A stretch of 64,000 nt of DNA from an uncultured Clostridia bacterium (GCA_945876935.1 CAMCQA010000003.1:7008-71007), one strand, 5' to 3'; shown: positions 8,950-55,500, counted from the first letter of the stretch. The notes: generated from the letters alone by a model not told the origin. Translations and numbers: made by a program.

Positions 8950-11208
8950 TTAAAGTTTCTTTAATGGCGCTACACTTCTAGCAAGTTTTTTCTCTCCCTC
9001 ATTATCAAAATCAACTTTGACAATCTTAGAATCAACTTCCATTACTCTTCCTTTTCCAAACTTACTATGCTCAACTAAATCTCCAACCTCTATATCTATT
9101 TTCTCTACAACCTTTTGCTTTACCTCTCTGATAGCTGTATCTACTGTTCTAAATGGACTTGACTCATAATAAGGACTCATTCCATCAAGATTTCTTTTAT
9201 ATCCCAAAGATGCCTCCGCTGTTTTGCTCCAAGGCATAGTTCCTACTAAAAGACTTTTATCTATTTCTCTCATAAATTCTGATTCTGAAGAGTAACTTAT
9301 CTTACCGTAAAGCATTCTAGCCTCAGCGCTTGTCATCCAAAGCTTTTTCATAGCTCTCGTTATCCCAACATAACAAAGTCTTCTCTCTTCTTCCAGCTTA
9401 TCTTCACTTTCTTTGCTTCTCCAACTTGGGAAAATACCATCCTCCATACCTGGCATAAACACATAAGGAAATTCCAACCCCTTAGCACTGTGCATAGTCA
9501 TAAGAACCACAGCATCTTCCTCCTTGTCGTGATTATCAACATCTGCCATCAGAGCTATTTTTTCAAGAAATTCCTGAAGTTCAATATTATTGCCTTCATC
9601 ATCTTTGCTCATTTCTTCAATAGCAGACTGAAAATCAAGTAAATTCTCTACTCTACTTCTTGCCTCATCTGTATTTTGACTCTCTAAAGATGCTAGATAT
9701 CCACTATCATTTAAAAGGCCTAAGAAAATATCCTTTATAGTTAAATTCTCTTTCTCTGTATTATATTGATTTATAACGTTTCTAAAAAGTTCTATATTAG
9801 CTCTTGTTTTAGCTGAAAACGAACCTAGTATATCTTCATTTTCTATAGCTTCAAATAGGCTTAAATTCTGAAAATTTGCAAAGGCTTTAAGTTTTTCTAT
9901 CGTGGTTTTTCCTATGCTTCTCTTAGGTGAGTTTATTACTCTTTCAAAGGCTATATCATCTTTAGGGTTAGACACTAGTCTCATATATGATAAGATATCT
10001 TTTATTTCCAATCTATCATAATATCTAAGTCCTCCTAGAACTCTATATGGTATACCTCTTCTTGAGAGAGCATCTTCAAAGGTTCTAGACTGTATATTAG
10101 TTCTATATAAGATAGCACAATCTCTATAATTATTGCCATTTGAAACTATATTACCTATTTCCATAGCTACATATTCAGCTTCTCTTCTATCATCATTAAA
10201 TCTCTCGTATCTTATTTTTTCGCCATCTTCAGCACTTGTCCAAAGCTTCTTTGACTTTCTAAGCCTATTATTCTCTATAACGCTATGTGCTGCTGCCAAA
10301 ATATTTCCTGTAGATCTATAGTTTTGTTCTAGCTTTATTACTTTCGCATCAGAAAAATCTTTCTCAAATTCAAGTATATTTCTTATATCAGCGCCTCTCC
10401 ACTGATAAATACCCTGATCATCATCTCCTACTACGCTAATATTGCCTCTCTTTTGAGCAAGGAGTTTTATAAGCATATATTGAAGCTGATTTGTATCTTG
10501 ATACTCATCAACCATAATATAATGGAATCTATCTTGATATTTTTCTAATATAATAGGATTCTCCTTAAATAGCCTAACTGTATTTAAAATAAGATCATCG
10601 AAATCCATCGCATTGTTCTTCTTTAATCTAGATTCATAGGCTCTGTAGACACTGGCAACAGTTTCATCCACACTATCACCTGCTTCTGCCATAAGTTGTG
10701 AAGGTGTCAAGTAGGACTCTTTCGCATCACTTATCTTACCTAAAAGCATGCTAGGTGAAAATCTTTTCTCATCTAAAGACTTATCTTTGATGATATCCTT
10801 TATTATACTCTTCTGATCCGCAGGGTCATATACTGCAAAGGAGCTTGTATAACCCACATATTCTGCTTCCATTCTCAATATTCTAAGGCATGCAGAGTGA
10901 AAAGTTAGAAGCCAAATATTAACAGCTCCTCCCATCAAGCTTTCTACTCTCTCTCTCATTTCCGCTGCAGCTTTATTTGTAAAAGTTACCGCTAAAATAT
11001 TATAAGGGCTTACTCCAACTTCTCTTATCAAATAAGCTATTCTTCTTGTCATCGTGCTAGTTTTACCACTGCCAGCACCGGCTAAAATAAGCAAGGCACC
11101 ATCTACAAAAGTAGCAGCTTCTCTCTGTTTTTCATTCAATGTTTCTAAATAATTCATTCTATTATCCATACTTATCTCTTTCTTTTCAATAGTAGTTTTA
11201 TTATACAT
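8950..11208 (-). CDS. pcrA: ATP-dependent DNA helicase PcrA
   Basis: AGAGSGKT, VDEYQDTN, EQNYRST, TMHSAKGLEF, EEERRLCYVGITRA. True start is probably 11169. Confidence 0.96.
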   Translation of the reverse strand: MYNKTTIEKKEISMDNRMNYLETLNEKQREAATFVDGALLILAGAGSGKTSTMTRRIAYLIREVGVSPYNILAVTFTNKAAAEMRERVESLMGGAVNIWLLTFHSACLRILRMEAEYVGYTSSFAVYDPADQKSIIKDIIKDKSLDEKRFSPSMLLGKISDAKESYLTPSQLMAEAGDSVDETVASVYRAYESRLKKNNAMDFDDLILNTVRLFKENPIILEKYQDRFHYIMVDEYQDTNQLQYMLIKLLAQKRGNISVVGDDDQGIYQWRGADIRNILEFEKDFSDAKVIKLEQNYRSTGNILAAAHSVIENNRLRKSKKLWTSAEDGEKIRYERFNDDRREAEYVAMEIGNIVSNGNNYRDCAILYRTNIQSRTFEDALSRRGIPYRVLGGLRYYDRLEIKDILSYMRLVSNPKDDIAFERVINSPKRSIGKTTIEKLKAFANFQNLSLFEAIENEDILGSFSAKTRANIELFRNVINQYNTEKENLTIKDIFLGLLNDSGYLASLESQNTDEARSRVENLLDFQSAIEEMSKDDEGNNIELQEFLEKIALMADVDNHDKEEDAVVLMTMHSAKGLEFPYVFMPGMEDGIFPSWRSKESEDKLEEERRLCYVGITRAMKKLWMTSAEARMLYGKISYSSESEFMREIDKSLLVGTMPWSKTAEASLGYKRNLDGMSPYYESSPFRTVDTAIREVKQKVVEKIDIEVGDLVEHSKFGKGRVMEVDSKIVKVDFDNEGEKKLARSVAPLKKL

Positions 11209-11281: not shown

Positions 11282-11998
11282 TTAAATAATTCTACTGAGT
11301 ATGCGTCTAAAGTTTTTTTCGATATACGTATCATCTTTGAGAACTATAGGCACACCTTTATTGGTAGCAATATGAATATTATCGTCGTACTGCATAAACC
11401 CTATTACTGGCATATTTAACTTAGATGTTATCTCCTCTAAAGTAGGAAGGAGACCCAGTGTCATAAGCTCCATATTAACTTTGTTAATAACGCATGCAAC
11501 ATCCTTTATGCCTTTTTTCTTCATTCTTTTTTCAACTACGTCCGCATCTCTAACAGAAGCATATTCAGCCTCTGTTATTACTATAGCCTGGTCTATATTC
11601 ACAGCCGCTAAATCTAAACTTTCATCTGCACCTGCTGGCGCATCTACTATAATATAATCAAAATCCTTTTTTAATCTATCCAAAAGAACATGCATGTGCA
11701 ATGGTGTGATATCTCGATCATCAAGGTATGGAGATGCTGCTATGAAATATAAGCTATCAAATCTCTTATCTTGTATAAGAGCCTTACTTATTGGCGCAAC
11801 GCCTGATACAACATCCATAACGTTATACACAACCTTATTTTCGAGACCTAGATAAAGGTCGAGATTTCTCAGCCCAAGATCCATATCAACTAAAAGAACC
11901 TTTTTTCCTTCCAGGGCCAACATGGCACCAAAATTAGCTGTAAACAGCGTCTTTCCAGTTCCTCCTTTTCCTGAAGCTATCAAAATAACCTTACCCAT
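11282..11998 (-). CDS. minD: Septum site-determining ATPase MinD
   Basis: Deviant Walker A SGKGGTGKT, DMDLGLRNLD, IVDAPAG; located downstream of mreBCD-PBP2. Confidence 0.88.
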   Translation of the reverse strand: MGKVILIASGKGGTGKTLFTANFGAMLALEGKKVLLVDMDLGLRNLDLYLGLENKVVYNVMDVVSGVAPISKALIQDKRFDSLYFIAASPYLDDRDITPLHMHVLLDRLKKDFDYIIVDAPAGADESLDLAAVNIDQAIVITEAEYASVRDADVVEKRMKKKGIKDVACVINKVNMELMTLGLLPTLEEITSKLNMPVIGFMQYDDNIHIATNKGVPIVLKDDTYIEKNFRRILSRII

Positions 11999-51213: not shown

Positions 51214-52044
51214 TTATATATTTTGTGGCGCTAAATGATTTACAGACCACTGACCTTCACCTATGGCTAGTTCCTGTGATAAAACAAGGTTCATATATTT
51301 TTTAGCTAGCTTAACACTATCTTCCATGGATAGTCCTTTTGCAAGGTTAGTAGCAATAGCGGAAGATAAGCAGCATCCTGTACCATGAGTATTTCTACTT
51401 TTTATTCTAGGTGCCTCTATCCACAAACCCTTTCCTCTATAAAAAAGATAGTCTCTTGCATAGGATTCATCTCTATTCTGTTCGCTTAAATCAGCTTTTG
51501 TATGTCCGCCTTTAATTAGTACGCCTCCTCTTACCATTCTAGAAATTTTTTCAGCAGCGAGCTCAGTTTCATAATCGTTATCAATACTCATTTCTGATAA
51601 AAATTCTGCTTCAGAAAGATTCGGAGTAAGTAAGTCCACTTGTGGCATAAGGCTACTTTTTATTTCTTCTATGGATTCTTTTGAAGATAAGAGAACTCCA
51701 CTAGAAGAAACTAAAACAGGGTCATAAACTATGTTTTTTTGTTGCTCATTTGAAAGTTTTAAAGCTAATGATTCTGCTGTATCTTTACTGTATATCATAC
51801 CTATTTTTACACTATCAGGTCTTATATCTTCATATATTGCGTTCAGTTGACTCTCAAACATATCTATACATACTGGAATGACCTTATATACAGACTTTGT
51901 ATTTTGAGCTGTAAGAGCTGATATTACAGCCATAGCATATGCTCCATGATTGTGTATCGTCTTAATATCTCCCTGTATCCCTGCTCCACCACTAGGGTCT
52001 GAGCCAGCCACAGATAAAACTTTTGCAACTTCTATTTTATTCAT
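51214..52044 (-). CDS. thiD: HMP/HMP-P kinase
   Basis: AGSDPSGGAGIQGDIKT, VKIGM, DPVLVSSSG, TPNLSEA, HGTGC. Confidence 0.95.
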   Translation of the reverse strand: MNKIEVAKVLSVAGSDPSGGAGIQGDIKTIHNHGAYAMAVISALTAQNTKSVYKVIPVCIDMFESQLNAIYEDIRPDSVKIGMIYSKDTAESLALKLSNEQQKNIVYDPVLVSSSGVLLSSKESIEEIKSSLMPQVDLLTPNLSEAEFLSEMSIDNDYETELAAEKISRMVRGGVLIKGGHTKADLSEQNRDESYARDYLFYRGKGLWIEAPRIKSRNTHGTGCCLSSAIATNLAKGLSMEDSVKLAKKYMNLVLSQELAIGEGQWSVNHLAPQNI

Positions 52045-52709
52045 AGTTTCTCTCCAAGCAAAGCCTCTACTTCTTTTAATATTAGTCTACAGTGAGATTT
52101 TATCTCACAAATATCTTTAGAGTAAATATCAGATATAATAGCAACACCATTTGTATTATAACTTTCTAATAATTTAATATTCTCAAAAGTTATTCCACCT
52201 ATTGCGACAATCGGTATGTCAACTGTGTGGCTTATTTCCTTAAATACTTCTGGTTTTATAGCATCTGCATCTAGCTTCGTTTCTGTTGAAAATACTGCTC
52301 CTACACCTATATAATCGGCACCTTTATTTTGCGCCTCAACAGCTTCCCTTAGATTTCCTGCCGATACGCCTATAACGGATAAGGATCCTAAAACTTCTCT
52401 TGCAAAGTTTATGCTATCATCATCTTGCCCTAAATGTACCCCGTCAGCACCTACACGCTTAGCAACCTCTATATTATCATTGACAATGAATAAAGCATTG
52501 TATTTATGACATAACTTCTTTATACGAGTAGCCTCTTCAATCATGCTATCTATGTCCATATTTTTTTCTCTCATTTGAACGATACCAACACCGCCCTTTA
52601 GGGATTCTTCTATTTTAGCATAAAAGGTTTCGTCTGAATCGCTCCATCTTCTATCAGTTATTGCATATAGCTTAATTTTCTCATAATCAAGATTTCTAAA
52701 CGATTTCAT
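52041..52709 (-). CDS. thiE: Thiamine-phosphate synthase
   Basis: LYAITDR, QMREK, IVND, GVHLGQDD, VAIGGI. Start 52709 follows an AGGAG RBS and overlaps the thiM stop. Confidence 0.95.
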   Translation of the reverse strand: MKSFRNLDYEKIKLYAITDRRWSDSDETFYAKIEESLKGGVGIVQMREKNMDIDSMIEEATRIKKLCHKYNALFIVNDNIEVAKRVGADGVHLGQDDDSINFAREVLGSLSVIGVSAGNLREAVEAQNKGADYIGVGAVFSTETKLDADAIKPEVFKEISHTVDIPIVAIGGITFENIKLLESYNTNGVAIISDIYSKDICEIKSHCRLILKEVEALLGEKL

Positions 52710-53529
52710 ATCTTCCTCTCTCCTTGAAAATAGCTTCATCTATCTCACTCATAGCATCTATAAGTTTTATGCCATAACTGCCGCAGGACTGATTTTCATG
52801 TAAATTTTCATAAGCAAGCTCACCGCTTATGCCCATAGTTATAACTGCAGAAACTGACGCTTCAAAAATACAATCAGGATTGGCAGAAATAAAGGCTGCT
52901 ACCACGCTGGATAACTGACATCCCGAGCCTGTGATTTTTTCCATCATAGAATGTCCATTGAAAACCCTAACTATGCTTCTTCCATCTGAAATAATATCAA
53001 CCTCCCCTGTCGTTATCACTACTGCATCAAGCTCTTTTGCAAGCTCTCTTGTCATAAATTCGGCAGAAGATAAACTCAAATGCTTCTTATCTTCTTCAGA
53101 AACATCCACACCTTTGCTGTGATGCTTTTTCTCCCAAATAGACCTTATTTCAGAAAGATTTCCCTTTATAACATCAGGTTTAATTTTTTTCAAAATATTC
53201 ATAGCTACTTCAAATCTAAATTTTGAAGCGCCTACTCCTACGGGATCGAACACGATTGGGTGATCGAGCCTTTTAGCAGTTTCACCAGCTCTTAGAATTG
53301 ACTCTATTCTATTGCTATTAATTGTCCCTATATTAATATTCAAGCCTTTTGATATGCTCTGTATATCCTCAACTTCCATAATTTCATCAGCCATTACAGG
53401 CGATGCTCCACATGCTAAAGTGATATTAGCACATGGGTTTGCTGTAACATAATTTGTTATATTGTGAACTAAGGGCGATATATTTTTAACTCTAGCTATA
53501 GCATCCCAAAGAGCTTGAAAATCTATCAT
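52696..53529 (-). CDS. thiM: Hydroxyethylthiazole kinase
   Basis: PLVHNITNYV, GASPVMA, DPVGVGAS, IKGNLSE, ITGSGC. Confidence 0.95.
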   Translation of the reverse strand: MIDFQALWDAIARVKNISPLVHNITNYVTANPCANITLACGASPVMADEIMEVEDIQSISKGLNINIGTINSNRIESILRAGETAKRLDHPIVFDPVGVGASKFRFEVAMNILKKIKPDVIKGNLSEIRSIWEKKHHSKGVDVSEEDKKHLSLSSAEFMTRELAKELDAVVITTGEVDIISDGRSIVRVFNGHSMMEKITGSGCQLSSVVAAFISANPDCIFEASVSAVITMGISGELAYENLHENQSCGSYGIKLIDAMSEIDEAIFKERGRYEIV

Positions 53530-53541
53530 TGTGTATTCTCC

Positions 53542-54051
53542 TTATCTAAGTTCTTCCTGCATTTTAGGAAGAACTCCCATTTTATCAAGAGATATAGCAA
53601 GTATACCTGCTATAACACTTCCTGCAACAGTAGAAATTAAAAACGGTGTTACATATACATAAAAAGCTAATTCTCCACCTTTTCCCATAATAAGAGTCGC
53701 AACAGGGTAAGCAAGAAGTCCTCCGATAATACCAGTTCCTACTATCTCTCCTACAACAGCCGCTGTTACACTTTTAGTTTTGCTATAAAGTGTACTACTT
53801 AAAAAGGCGCCTATCATACTCCCTGGGAAAGCTAGCAAGCTACCCAATCCTAGAATATTTCTAAGAACACTAGCTGAAAAGGCTACGCTAACACCGTAGT
53901 ATCTTCCCAATAAAACTGCACACATAACATTTACAAAATGTTGTACAGGTGCACATTTACTAGCTAATACAGGAAATGTAATAAAGCTACCTACAACGCA
54001 AAGTCCGCATAAAAGACTTGCTAAAACCAATTTTTTACTGTTCTTGTTCAT
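53542..54051 (-). CDS. thiW: ECF transporter S-component ThiW (thiazole precursor uptake)
   Basis: PVQHFVNV, LRNILGLGSLLAFPGSMIGA, GEIVGTGIIG; first gene of the thi operon. Confidence 0.92.
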   Translation of the reverse strand: MNKNSKKLVLASLLCGLCVVGSFITFPVLASKCAPVQHFVNVMCAVLLGRYYGVSVAFSASVLRNILGLGSLLAFPGSMIGAFLSSTLYSKTKSVTAAVVGEIVGTGIIGGLLAYPVATLIMGKGGELAFYVYVTPFLISTVAGSVIAGILAISLDKMGVLPKMQEELR

Positions 54052-54069
54052 CTTTAACTCCTTTACATA

Positions 54070-54221
54070 GGAAATCGTATAACAGAACGATTTCCAAAAA
54101 ATAAAAATATCTTGGTCGGTCGAAACTTAAGGTTTCCTCTCACGCCGCAACACGGCTTCCCATCGCTGTTATACAAGACCTATAGACGCTCCTCTAAGGT
54201 CCGCTACTCTCGTAGATATTT
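54070..54221 (-). ncRNA. Second cis-regulatory RNA element: TPP-like half aptamer plus switchable hairpin (candidate novel riboswitch)
   Basis: Closing stem 54214-54221/54105-54112; UGAGAGG-GAAAC/GUUUC-GACC module; 13-bp alternative pairing (54162-54174 with 54077-54091) competes with hairpin 54070-54095. Confidence 0.6.
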
Positions 54222-54265
54222 CCTGCAATAGAGTTTATACAATAAAGCAGAATTTTTTAATATAA

Positions 54266-54289
54266 AACAGGGCCCTGATAGAGCCCTGT
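54266..54289 (-). terminator. Attenuator terminator of the TPP riboswitch
   Basis: ACAGGGCUC-UAUCA-GGGCCCUGU followed by UUUAUAUU. Confidence 0.8.
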
Positions 54290-54291
54290 AA

Positions 54292-54392
54292 AAAACATCT
54301 TTGTTCCTACGACGGCATTATCCGTATCAGGTATATGGGTCGAGACTCTATTGTCTCCTCTCAGCCTGATATACAAGCTCCCCGGTTTTATT
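54292..54392 (-). ncRNA. TPP riboswitch
   Basis: GGGGAGC..GCUGAGAGG-P3a-GACCC-AUAU-ACCUGAU-ACGG-AUAAUG-CCGU-CGUAGG; all canonical motifs present upstream of thiamine genes. Confidence 0.95.
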
Positions 54393-54406
54393 ATCATTGT
54401 AATATA

Positions 54407-55429
54407 TTACTTAAATTTTCTTCTTCTGTTTAGAGCACTCTTCTGTAATACATCTATATTTTCAAGAGCTCTACCTGTTCCAACTGCCACACAGTTCATA
54501 GGATTTTCAGCTATCTTAACATTGATACCTGTTCTATTTCTTATTCTCTCATCTATACCGTACAGTAGAGCACCTCCACCTGTAACTATGATTCCACTAT
54601 TGCTTATATCTGCAGCAAGCTCCGGTGGTGTTTTTTCTAAAACAGAGTGAATAGCTTCACATATAGCATGCAAAGGTTCTTCCAAGGCTTCTAGCATATC
54701 TGTAGATGTAACTGTAACCTCTCTTGGAAGACCTGTAACAAGGTCTCTTCCACTACAAACAGCAGTAAGCTCTTCGTCTCTTTTCCAAGCAGTTCCTATT
54801 TCTTTCTTTAGCTTTTCAGCCATTCTTTCACCGATGTAAAGTCTGTTCTTCTTTCTCATGAACTTGACGATAGCCTCGTCCATTCTATCTCCAGCAACTT
54901 TCAAAGATGTACTTGCAACTATACCACCTAATGAAATTACAGCTACGTCAGATGTTCCTCCGCCTATATCAACAACGAAAATCCCCTCTGGTCTAGATAC
55001 ATCAAGATCAGCACCTATAGCTGCTGCTAAAGGCTCTTCCATTAGAAATACATCTTTTCCTCCAGCCTGTGCTGCTGCTTCTCTAACAGCCCTTTTCTCA
55101 ACTTCAGTTACACCACTAGGAACACAAACCATTATTCTTGGCTTGAAAAATCTTCCTTTACCTACAGTTTTTCTTATGAAGTATTTAAGCATTCTCTCAG
55201 TAACATCGTAGTCTGAGATTACACCATCTCTCAAAGGTCTAAGAGCAATAATATTGGCAGGAGTTCTACCTAACATTTCTTTAGCTTCCTGTCCCACAGC
55301 TAGGATTTCATCCGTTTCTTCATCTACTGCAACAACGGAAGGTTCTTCTAAAACAACTCCCTTACCTTTTATATATACAAGTACGTTTGCCGTACCTAAG
55401 TCGATTCCTACTTCTTCTGTAAATGCCAT
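54407..55429 (-). CDS. mbl: MreB paralogue (Mbl)
   Basis: GIDLGTANV, RPLRDGVISDY, VPSGVTEVEKRAV, DIGGGTSD; stand-alone location; start after AGGAAGG. Confidence 0.88.
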   Translation of the reverse strand: MAFTEEVGIDLGTANVLVYIKGKGVVLEEPSVVAVDEETDEILAVGQEAKEMLGRTPANIIALRPLRDGVISDYDVTERMLKYFIRKTVGKGRFFKPRIMVCVPSGVTEVEKRAVREAAAQAGGKDVFLMEEPLAAAIGADLDVSRPEGIFVVDIGGGTSDVAVISLGGIVASTSLKVAGDRMDEAIVKFMRKKNRLYIGERMAEKLKKEIGTAWKRDEELTAVCSGRDLVTGLPREVTVTSTDMLEALEEPLHAICEAIHSVLEKTPPELAADISNSGIIVTGGGALLYGIDERIRNRTGINVKIAENPMNCVAVGTGRALENIDVLQKSALNRRRKFK

Positions 55430-55500
55430 AATAAGCTTCCTTCCTGACAAATTTATTTATATTAAATTAACTTTAATTATGTTCATTATTTATCTAGTTT

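Follow-up and report, generated by a model that had tools for sequence, protein, structure and literature searches.

The stretch of DNA analyzed here, 64,000 nucleotides (nt) from an uncultured Clostridia bacterium (GCA_945876935.1, CAMCQA010000003.1:7008-71007) and called the window throughout, carries on its minus strand the operon thiW-thiM-thiE-thiD, preceded by a canonical thiamine pyrophosphate (TPP) riboswitch with its own terminator. Between that terminator and thiW lies the subject of this report, an element at 54223-54103 (-) that is a highly conserved structured RNA and no decayed duplicate, and that looks like a candidate new riboswitch class sharing one sub-domain with TPP riboswitches. 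An initial annotation of this DNA had placed a rearranged TPP half-aptamer here. The 215 nt from the terminator to the thiW start codon hold every feature described in that annotation, and the locus is laid out as follows.

54287-54390, minus strand: aptamer of the canonical TPP riboswitch, the first sensor of the tandem (full-length match to RF00059 at 61.6 bits; gathering score, 54.3)
54258-54289, minus strand: intrinsic terminator of the TPP riboswitch, with stem 54289-54267 and a U-rich tail (terminator scan: 10 pairs, 6 of them G-C, then UUUUAUAUU)
54224-54235, minus strand: 5' leader segment AACUCU-A-UUGCA, the complement of the thiW ribosome-binding region UGUAA-A-GGAGUU
54216-54223, minus strand: 5' strand of the closing stem P1, GGAAAUAU, which pairs with 54110-54103
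54204-54215, minus strand: small variable hairpin CUAC-GAGA-GUAG, present in the minimum-energy fold
54176-54202, minus strand: hairpin whose hexaloop GGAGCG (54192-54187) is near-invariant and whose stem shows compensatory changes
54162-54175, minus strand: junction or switching sequence UGUAUAACAGCGAU, a variable linker plus the invariant AGCGAU
54117-54161, minus strand: TPP-like pyrimidine-sensor arm, GGG-AA-[GCCG UGUUG CGGC]-GUGAGA-G-[GAAAC CUUAA GUUUC]-GACCG
54103-54110, minus strand: 3' strand of P1, AUAUUUUU, read from the sequence and paired in the aptamer-constrained fold, then a U-rich tract to 54096
54070-54095, minus strand: platform hairpin H1, GGAAAUCGU/ACGAUUUCC, whose 3' strand UUUCCU resembles an anti-Shine-Dalgarno sequence
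54049-54064, minus strand: thiW Shine-Dalgarno (SD) sequence AAAGGAG (54064-54058) and AUG (54051-54049)
51214-54051, minus strand: regulated operon thiW-thiM-thiE-thiD
53542-54051, minus strand: thiW (Pfam ThiW, 160.9 bits; NCBIfam thiW equivalog, 158 bits)
52696-53529, minus strand: thiM (Pfam HK, 261.5 bits)
52041-52739, minus strand: thiE (Pfam TMP-TENI, 202.6 bits)
51214-52044, minus strand: thiD (Pfam Phos_pyr_kin, 267 bits)

When we checked the annotated element by hand against the window sequence, its coordinates and sequence blocks were all exact: the hairpin GACCU-UAGA-GGAGCG-UCUA-U-AGGUC at 54201-54177; GUAUAACAGCGAU at 54174-54162 and its proposed partner AUCGUUCUGUUAUAC at 54091-54077; H1 at 54095-54070 with the thiW AUG at 54051; GCCG/CGGC at 54156-54153 and 54147-54144; UGAGAGG at 54142-54136; GAAAC/GUUUC at 54136-54132 and 54126-54122; and GACC at 54121-54118. 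The upstream riboswitch and its terminator are likewise confirmed, by the RF00059 match and the terminator scan respectively. No open reading frame of at least 50 amino acids overlaps the element on either strand, and the region folds better than its shuffles (z = -3.4).

A conserved, covarying RNA structure upstream of thiW

A ThiW-based scan, limited to one genome per species, gave 80 loci with a ThiW 45-60% identical to that of the window. The element lies 70-250 nt 5' of thiW in 39 of these 80 species-level loci (blastn and nhmmer), and across those roughly 40 loci its 34-nt core, ACAGCGAUGGGAAGCCGUGUUCCGGCGUGAGAGG, is 91-97% identical, whereas the ThiW proteins are merely 45-60% identical. 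A gene-blind, exact-pattern scan of metagenome contigs (GGGAANCCNTGTTNNGGNGTGAGAGG) found at least 120 further contigs, and loci with the core pattern number at least 159, that is, 158 fetched loci and the window. According to their records, these sequences come from Oscillospiraceae, Lachnospiraceae, Faecalibacterium, other Clostridia, Anaeroplasmataceae and Allobaculum. Among the cultured strains that carry the element are Oscillibacter ruminantium GH1 (locus L009) and, with a divergent copy, Allobaculum mucilyticum 128 (L054). The window's own sequence was found in pig-gut and oral metagenome DNA runs. The conservation of the element is far above chance.

An alignment of 82 non-redundant sequences (A1) defines the order of parts. 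From 5' to 3' these are an optional variable hairpin, the GGAGCG hairpin, a linker ending in the invariant AGCGA(U), and the sensor arm, which itself runs GGGAA, a 4-bp hairpin with the loop UGUU(C/G), GUGAGA-G, a 5-bp hairpin and GACCG. Relatives have a variable hairpin at the position of CUAC-GAGA-GUAG, then a C, then the GGAGCG hairpin. The near-invariant blocks are the loop GGAGCG, AGCGAU-GGGAA, CCGUGUU (CC.UGUU), GUGAGAGG and GACCG, and the GCGA of the junction is invariant in 82 of 82 sequences. The TPP-like pyrimidine-sensor arm that had been proposed from the window is therefore a family feature: GGGAA..GUGAGAGG..GACCG is invariant in the 82 sequences and both of its hairpins covary.

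In this structure 98.3% of cells are paired and 13 of the 20 pairs show double changes. We counted 202 compensatory cells, compared with 51 +/- 8 in column shuffles, none of which (0/500) reached 202; sliding the 3' partner gave 11-22. RNAalifold independently predicts the same three hairpins. The GGAGCG hairpin has compensatory changes at 7 of 8 pairs, with UAGA/UCUA in the window replaced elsewhere by AGGG/CCCU, AAGG/CCUU or AUGA/UCAU. The 4-bp sensor hairpin varies in the same way (GCCG/CGGC against CCCG/CGGG, UCCG/CGGA and GCCA/UGGC), as does the 5-bp hairpin (GAAAC/GUUUC against GAGGC/GCCUC, GAUGC/GCAUC and GGUAC/GUACC). Conservation and covariation, both sought in relatives as a check on the initial annotation, are both strong.

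The closing stem is the part of the drawing that stood only partially. P1 had been placed at AAAUAUCU/AGAUAUUU (54221-54214/54112-54105); these strands are present and pair strongly in the window, but P1 is not a firm feature of the family. Because bases 54215-54204 form the small variable hairpin by homology, the stem is better drawn as GGAAAUAU/AUAUUUUU (54223-54216/54110-54103). P1 in the window is 8-10 bp long, and only 0.5% of shuffles reach the 10 bp of its best stem. Family-wide, own 5' strands did better than those of other members in 33 cases and worse in 18 (p = 0.03), which supports P1 weakly, as did a crude search for stems. Some lineages have no candidate P1, and in some the GGAGCG hairpin stands directly 3' of the TPP terminator. 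We also considered a kissing interaction between the loop bases AGCG and the P3 loop UGUU. It was rejected: both segments are invariant in the main type, so that they show no covariation, and the interaction is lost in the divergent Allobaculum copy.

Relation to TPP riboswitches and to the thiS motif

The sensor arm of the element follows the layout of the corresponding part of a TPP riboswitch (RF00059), namely GGG, a hairpin, UGAGA, a hairpin and ACC (P2, P3, UGAGA, P3a, ACC), and both RNAs occupy 5' untranslated regions in association with the thiamine pathway. In solved TPP aptamer structures, the 4-amino-2-methylpyrimidine (HMP) ring intercalates in the pyrimidine-sensor helix. The element keeps the nucleotides that, in the crystal structures of TPP aptamers, form this HMP pocket. 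There are also differences. The P4/P5 pyrophosphate arm, ACCUGAU...CGUAGG, is missing from the window element and from all 82 aligned homologues, in keeping with the initial annotation; an extra hairpin with the loop GGAGCG precedes the sensor arm; the AGCGAU junction and the P3 stem-loop GCCGUGUUCCGGC are invariant; and an extra G is associated with UGAGA, in front of it. Where that annotation saw in the GGAGCG hairpin a permuted P4/P5, the idea had to be given up: the sequences are unlike, with none of the ACCUGAU/CGUAGG signature and an invariant hexaloop of the hairpin's own, and the TPP model finds nothing on the element.

Indeed, a scan of 54000-54450 against Rfam at E <= 10 returned the upstream TPP aptamer and chance microRNA and small nucleolar RNA matches, with no full or partial match on the element, and RF00059 likewise gave no match on the element in 20 homologous loci. 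R1, a covariance model that we built from the element family, scores members at 49-106 bits (82.3 for the window) and canonical TPP aptamers at 10-36 bits, the latter through the sensor arm only, and the two score populations do not overlap. The element is thus related to, or convergent with, TPP riboswitches in one sub-domain, and lacks two of the features that define that family.

This comparison bears on the simplest alternative, that the element is a decayed duplicate of the neighboring TPP riboswitch with no function of its own. The sensor arm is common to the adjacent TPP aptamer, to which R1 gives 33.9 bits, and this speaks for a duplicate. A decaying copy, however, should not be more conserved in sequence across families than canonical TPP aptamers are, keep compensatory base changes, possess extra invariant blocks that TPP aptamers lack, or occur where there is no TPP riboswitch at all. 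The element does all four, and we consider decay extremely improbable.

No description of the motif was found in Rfam 15 or in PMC open-access and bioRxiv full text to 2026, a search in which subscription-only papers were outside the scope. The lack of an Rfam match, offered initially as support for novelty, did hold as an observation but is weak evidence, because the same Rfam copy also misses the published thiS motif, the riboswitch for HMP pyrophosphate (HMP-PP): at locus L023, whose leader resembles rows of the published thiS/HMP-PP alignment, it returns nothing even at E <= 10. This counts against treating absence from Rfam as proof of a new class. Tandem TPP-TPP 'pseudo-cooperative' riboswitches were reportedly described by Welz and Breaker in 2007 and are treated by Sherlock et al. 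2022 (PMC9481103). The arrangement studied here resembles them in having two thiamine-related sensors in series, each with its own platform, ahead of one operon, but its second sensor is not a TPP-class aptamer and also occurs alone. The Breaker laboratory has further mentioned unpublished TPP-class variants that prefer thiamine or thiamine monophosphate (TMP); by that description they are classified as TPP riboswitches (PMC9481103), whereas the element is not.

A ThiW homologue follows in nearly every one of the 159 loci that has enough downstream DNA, usually with thiM and thiE and sometimes thiD behind it, and several apparent exceptions encode a divergent ThiW subfamily. Of the loci examined, L174 alone (element at 3156-3065, -) has thiF-thiG-thiH, for thiazole synthesis, behind the element in place of thiW. 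Contig L142 bears a second copy of the element, divergent in sequence (11021-11135, -; 50.4 bits), with CUGAGA but without the extra G and with an inserted linker stem. It stands alone, with a clean intrinsic terminator 3' of it, and the canonical TPP riboswitch at 11384-11491 points the opposite way; in constrained folding the terminator forms in both states.

The tandem arrangement seen in the window also recurs. Of the 138 loci with enough upstream sequence, at least 119 have a canonical TPP riboswitch, complete as in the window, 100-340 nt 5' of the element. At least 10 loci, on the other hand, have no TPP riboswitch anywhere. At L155 (3607-3717) and L129 (11-89) the TPP riboswitch lies between thiW and thiM, so that thiW is under the element alone and thiM-thiE under TPP. 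Taken with the TPP-free loci, this implies that the element is an autonomous unit. The same evidence bears on the suggestion that it is a leader bound by a protein or another RNA, or a mere accessory of the TPP riboswitch's expression platform. That the GGAGCG hairpin directly abuts the TPP terminator in one lineage would fit such a role. Against it, the nucleotides of the TPP riboswitch's HMP pocket are retained, at least 10 loci have the element as a self-contained unit with no TPP riboswitch, and it has its own switching helix and platform; we judge this explanation very unlikely.

We then asked what lies upstream of thiW when the element is absent. Of 41 such loci, 40 were scanned with Rfam, and most of these have a lone TPP riboswitch immediately 5' of thiW. 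Eight of the loci without the element (L023, L024, L027, L039-L042 and L048) have at the same position, about 60-120 nt 5' of thiW, a leader like the thiS motif, ACGAAGGGGCAUACCACCGCGGGUAUG...UUUUU, which matches the published thiS-motif alignment. Separately, locus L071 has a Clostridiales-1 RNA (RF01699, 2189-2352, 126.9 bits), a motif of unknown function, about 150 nt 5' of a thiW gene, and a TPP riboswitch 1.5 kb further upstream.

The published regulon of the thiS motif comprises thiS-F-G-H, thiW and thiE. About 30% of the motif's members have a TPP riboswitch in front of them, and a thiW gene is one of the places where this tandem occurs (PMC6429828, PMC6478431). The HMP-PP riboswitch (Atilho et al. 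2019, PMC6478431) thus resembles the element in its genes (thiW, thiS-F-G-H, thiM, thiE), in its position, either immediately 3' of a complete TPP riboswitch with its own terminator or alone, and probably in its logic, NOT TPP AND precursor. In architecture the two are unrelated. The thiS motif consists of a hairpin plus pseudoknot of about 60 nt embedded in a terminator, GAAGGGGC..ACCACC..GGU followed by a U tract, and it has no UGAGA; the element is about 90-120 nt long, comprises several stems and in most cases is linked to translation. The published alignment rows resemble L023, L024 and the other such leaders, not the element. By gene context, then, the element occupies the same niche as the thiS motif.

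Expression platform, direction of switching and ligand

In the window the junction UGUAUAACAGCGAU (54175-54162) can pair with AAUCGUUCUGUUAUACGAU (54092-54074), in the 5' strand and loop of hairpin H1, at -15.0 kcal/mol, and pairing at 54092-54074 excludes H1 (54095-54070). This alternative pairing between junction and platform, first put forward from the window, recurs in relatives, and its linker covaries. Of 77 leaders, about 55 have a duplex of -13 kcal/mol or stronger between the linker with its CAGCGA and a segment of the (A/G)CGCUG type further 3'. The complement sits 65 to 20 nt before the start codon and tracks the variable linker (GAUAUAACAGCG/CGCUGUUAUAUC, CAGAAAAAAGCG/CGCUUUUUUCUG and AAUUCAGCGAUG/CAUCGCUGAAUU); in an own-against-other test of the switching helix, p = 0.027. 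A conserved, covarying structure in a 5' untranslated region, joined to its platform by an alternative helix, is the generic mark of a riboswitch, and the element bears that mark.

The platform has a characteristic build. In most relatives GA-rich/CU-rich hairpins enclose the CGCUG-type complement, which usually forms the loop and 5' strand of the platform hairpin a few bases before the real SD. The 5' strand of this hairpin is SD-like (GGAAACG, GCGGAGGC) and its 3' strand anti-SD-like (CGUUUCC, GCUUCCGC). The duplex between 5' leader and SD has an energy of -11.0 kcal/mol in the window and is also paired in predicted folds; across the family, the pairing of a leader with its own SD beats that with the SD of other leaders by 35 to 8 (p = 1e-4). 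A terminator-like hairpin between aptamer and SD is present in just 9 of 77 leaders, implying that control is mainly translational, and transcription control was rejected as the general mechanism.

A platform hairpin with a U tract, GUGCGGGAGC..GCCCCUGCAC UUAUUUUUU, was seen at L086, L095, L100, L127, L135, L139, L151, L160 and L178. It lies about 60-95 nt after GACCG, and its loop GGCGGUC is complementary to the GACCGCU of the aptamer.

Because the pocket is built on the pyrimidine-sensor arm of TPP riboswitches (GGG...UGAGA...ACC), the element most likely recognizes the HMP ring, to judge by analogy with that family. The ligand is probably not TPP, since the pyrophosphate arm is replaced by the GGAGCG-loop hairpin and the invariant AGCGAU junction. 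The retained pocket, the lost pyrophosphate arm, the restriction to genes of the thiazole branch and the interchangeability with the thiS motif together suggest a shorter HMP compound. HMP-PP would be our first choice, a tentative one, with HMP monophosphate (HMP-P) or HMP next; the chief competitor of an HMP-type ligand is thiamine or TMP acting through OFF logic. Our preferred reading, to which we give a probability of about 0.5, is that the element represents an independent riboswitch class whose ligand is a precursor containing HMP, probably HMP-PP, and which switches translation ON.

Under this reading, the ligand would serve as a signal that the pyrimidine partner is available. Without it, the junction (54175-54162) would pair with 54092-54074, H1 would be blocked and the thiW ribosome-binding region sequestered. 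Direct binding of the ligand, which we infer, would lock the junction into the aptamer and allow H1 to form, so that the ribosome-binding site (RBS) opens more easily and translation is ON. Coupled to the upstream TPP terminator switch, the element would complete a NOT-TPP AND precursor gate, under which low TPP together with an available pyrimidine partner would permit expression of the operon.

The direction of switching is the least secure part of this analysis; folding models and minimal leaders lean toward ON, which we consider somewhat more probable than OFF. The junction can pair with the SD-AUG region itself in the minimal leaders L121 and L166, and also in L145, provided that translation there begins at the AUG 14 nt 3' of GACCG. 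By calculation, locking the aptamer makes the RBS easier to open in 20 leaders and harder in 4; for the window the opening energy is 9.1 kcal/mol in the free state and 6.3 kcal/mol in the locked one. The real aptamer raises the free-state opening cost beyond that of shuffled aptamers in 19 leaders against 4 (p = 0.027). Finally, the relay of SD mimic, anti-SD and SD makes sense only if formation of H1 frees the SD, and we therefore counted it for ON.

Several observations weigh against an ON switch for HMP-PP. The ON evidence consists of thermodynamic models with small effects. Plain SD-unpaired probabilities did not differ between the modeled states (0.24 versus 0.26), nor did they in constrained versus free ensembles that included the 5' leader, so that only the opening energies with their shuffled control are informative; in the window, both modeled states have the SD paired to the 5' leader. 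In the lineage of L086, L095 and L100, the hairpin formed in the aptamer-locked model precedes UUAUUUUUU, and the competitor helix GACCGCUUCUUCCG:CGGGAGCGGCGGUC consumes the invariant GACCG, so that ligand binding would favor the terminator. If this hairpin is a working terminator, the L086-type layout would be an OFF switch, and the U-tract lineage may be a terminator-type variant of the platform that conflicts with ON. Since thiD is part of the regulated operon, an HMP-PP ON switch would also create a positive feedback loop. The divergent copy at L142 precedes an ATP-binding cassette transporter (a PhnD-like binding protein of unknown substrate, an ATPase and a permease), and the search for runs holding the window sequence found no RNA-seq runs, solely DNA runs.

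The principal alternative is that the element is an OFF switch responding to a thiamine vitamer that resembles the end product (thiamine, TMP or TPP itself) and acts as a second, differently tuned feedback after the TPP switch. Besides the GC-rich hairpin and U tract of the L086 group, the 5' leader complements the SD, and formation of P1 could place them side by side; entire salvage operons are under the control of stand-alone copies, a setting in which feedback by the end product is expected; and TPP-like variants preferring thiamine or TMP, although unpublished, are on record (PMC9481103). TPP itself is an unlikely ligand for such a switch, with the pyrophosphate arm gone and the thiazole-spanning geometry changed. 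Direct pairing of the junction with the SD-AUG region in the minimal leaders is the layout of an ON switch, the opening-energy models favor ON even in the L086 group, and the regulon is limited to the thiazole branch, like that of the ON-type HMP-PP switch. We therefore regard the OFF switch as an unlikely alternative, although a substantial one, and retain the ON switch for an HMP-type precursor as the preferred reading.

A further possibility, also doubtful, is that the class kept the HMP-binding half of the TPP aptamer, grafted on a new arm and senses a metabolite with no known riboswitch. The ligand would then be, for example, free HMP, HMP-P or a pyrimidine from thiamine breakdown rather than HMP-PP or TPP. 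In that case the element would be a natural case of an aptamer re-engineered by modules, and a second, independent solution to precursor sensing in the thiamine salvage of gut anaerobes.

Other features of the window and implications

Within the operon, the thiM and thiE open reading frames, as called mechanically, overlap by 44 nt (52696-52739); the likely explanation is a later start codon for thiE, or translational coupling of the two genes. Elsewhere, the window has an adenosylcobalamin riboswitch match (RF01482, 55856-55988, -), whose 53.3 bits narrowly exceed the gathering score of 50. On the same strand, the first long open reading frame 3' of it, about 405 nt off, encodes MreB/Mbl (54407-55450). 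This is an unusual partner for a B12 riboswitch, and a small unannotated gene may lie between them. A bacterial small signal recognition particle RNA (RF00169, 5683-5782, -; 71.5 bits) is ordinary.

It had been supposed that most riboswitch classes represented hundreds of times in the well-sampled gut Firmicutes were already known. The element seems to have been overlooked, probably because it was hidden in the shadow of the annotated TPP riboswitch. HMP-type compounds are exchanged in gut and marine communities, and a compact sensor part for such compounds is one use to which the element might be put. If our reading is true, it would offer a natural test of how the ligand of an aptamer changes when one sub-domain is swapped and the other kept. 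It would also provide a second architecture for precursor-sensing logic gates in thiamine metabolism.
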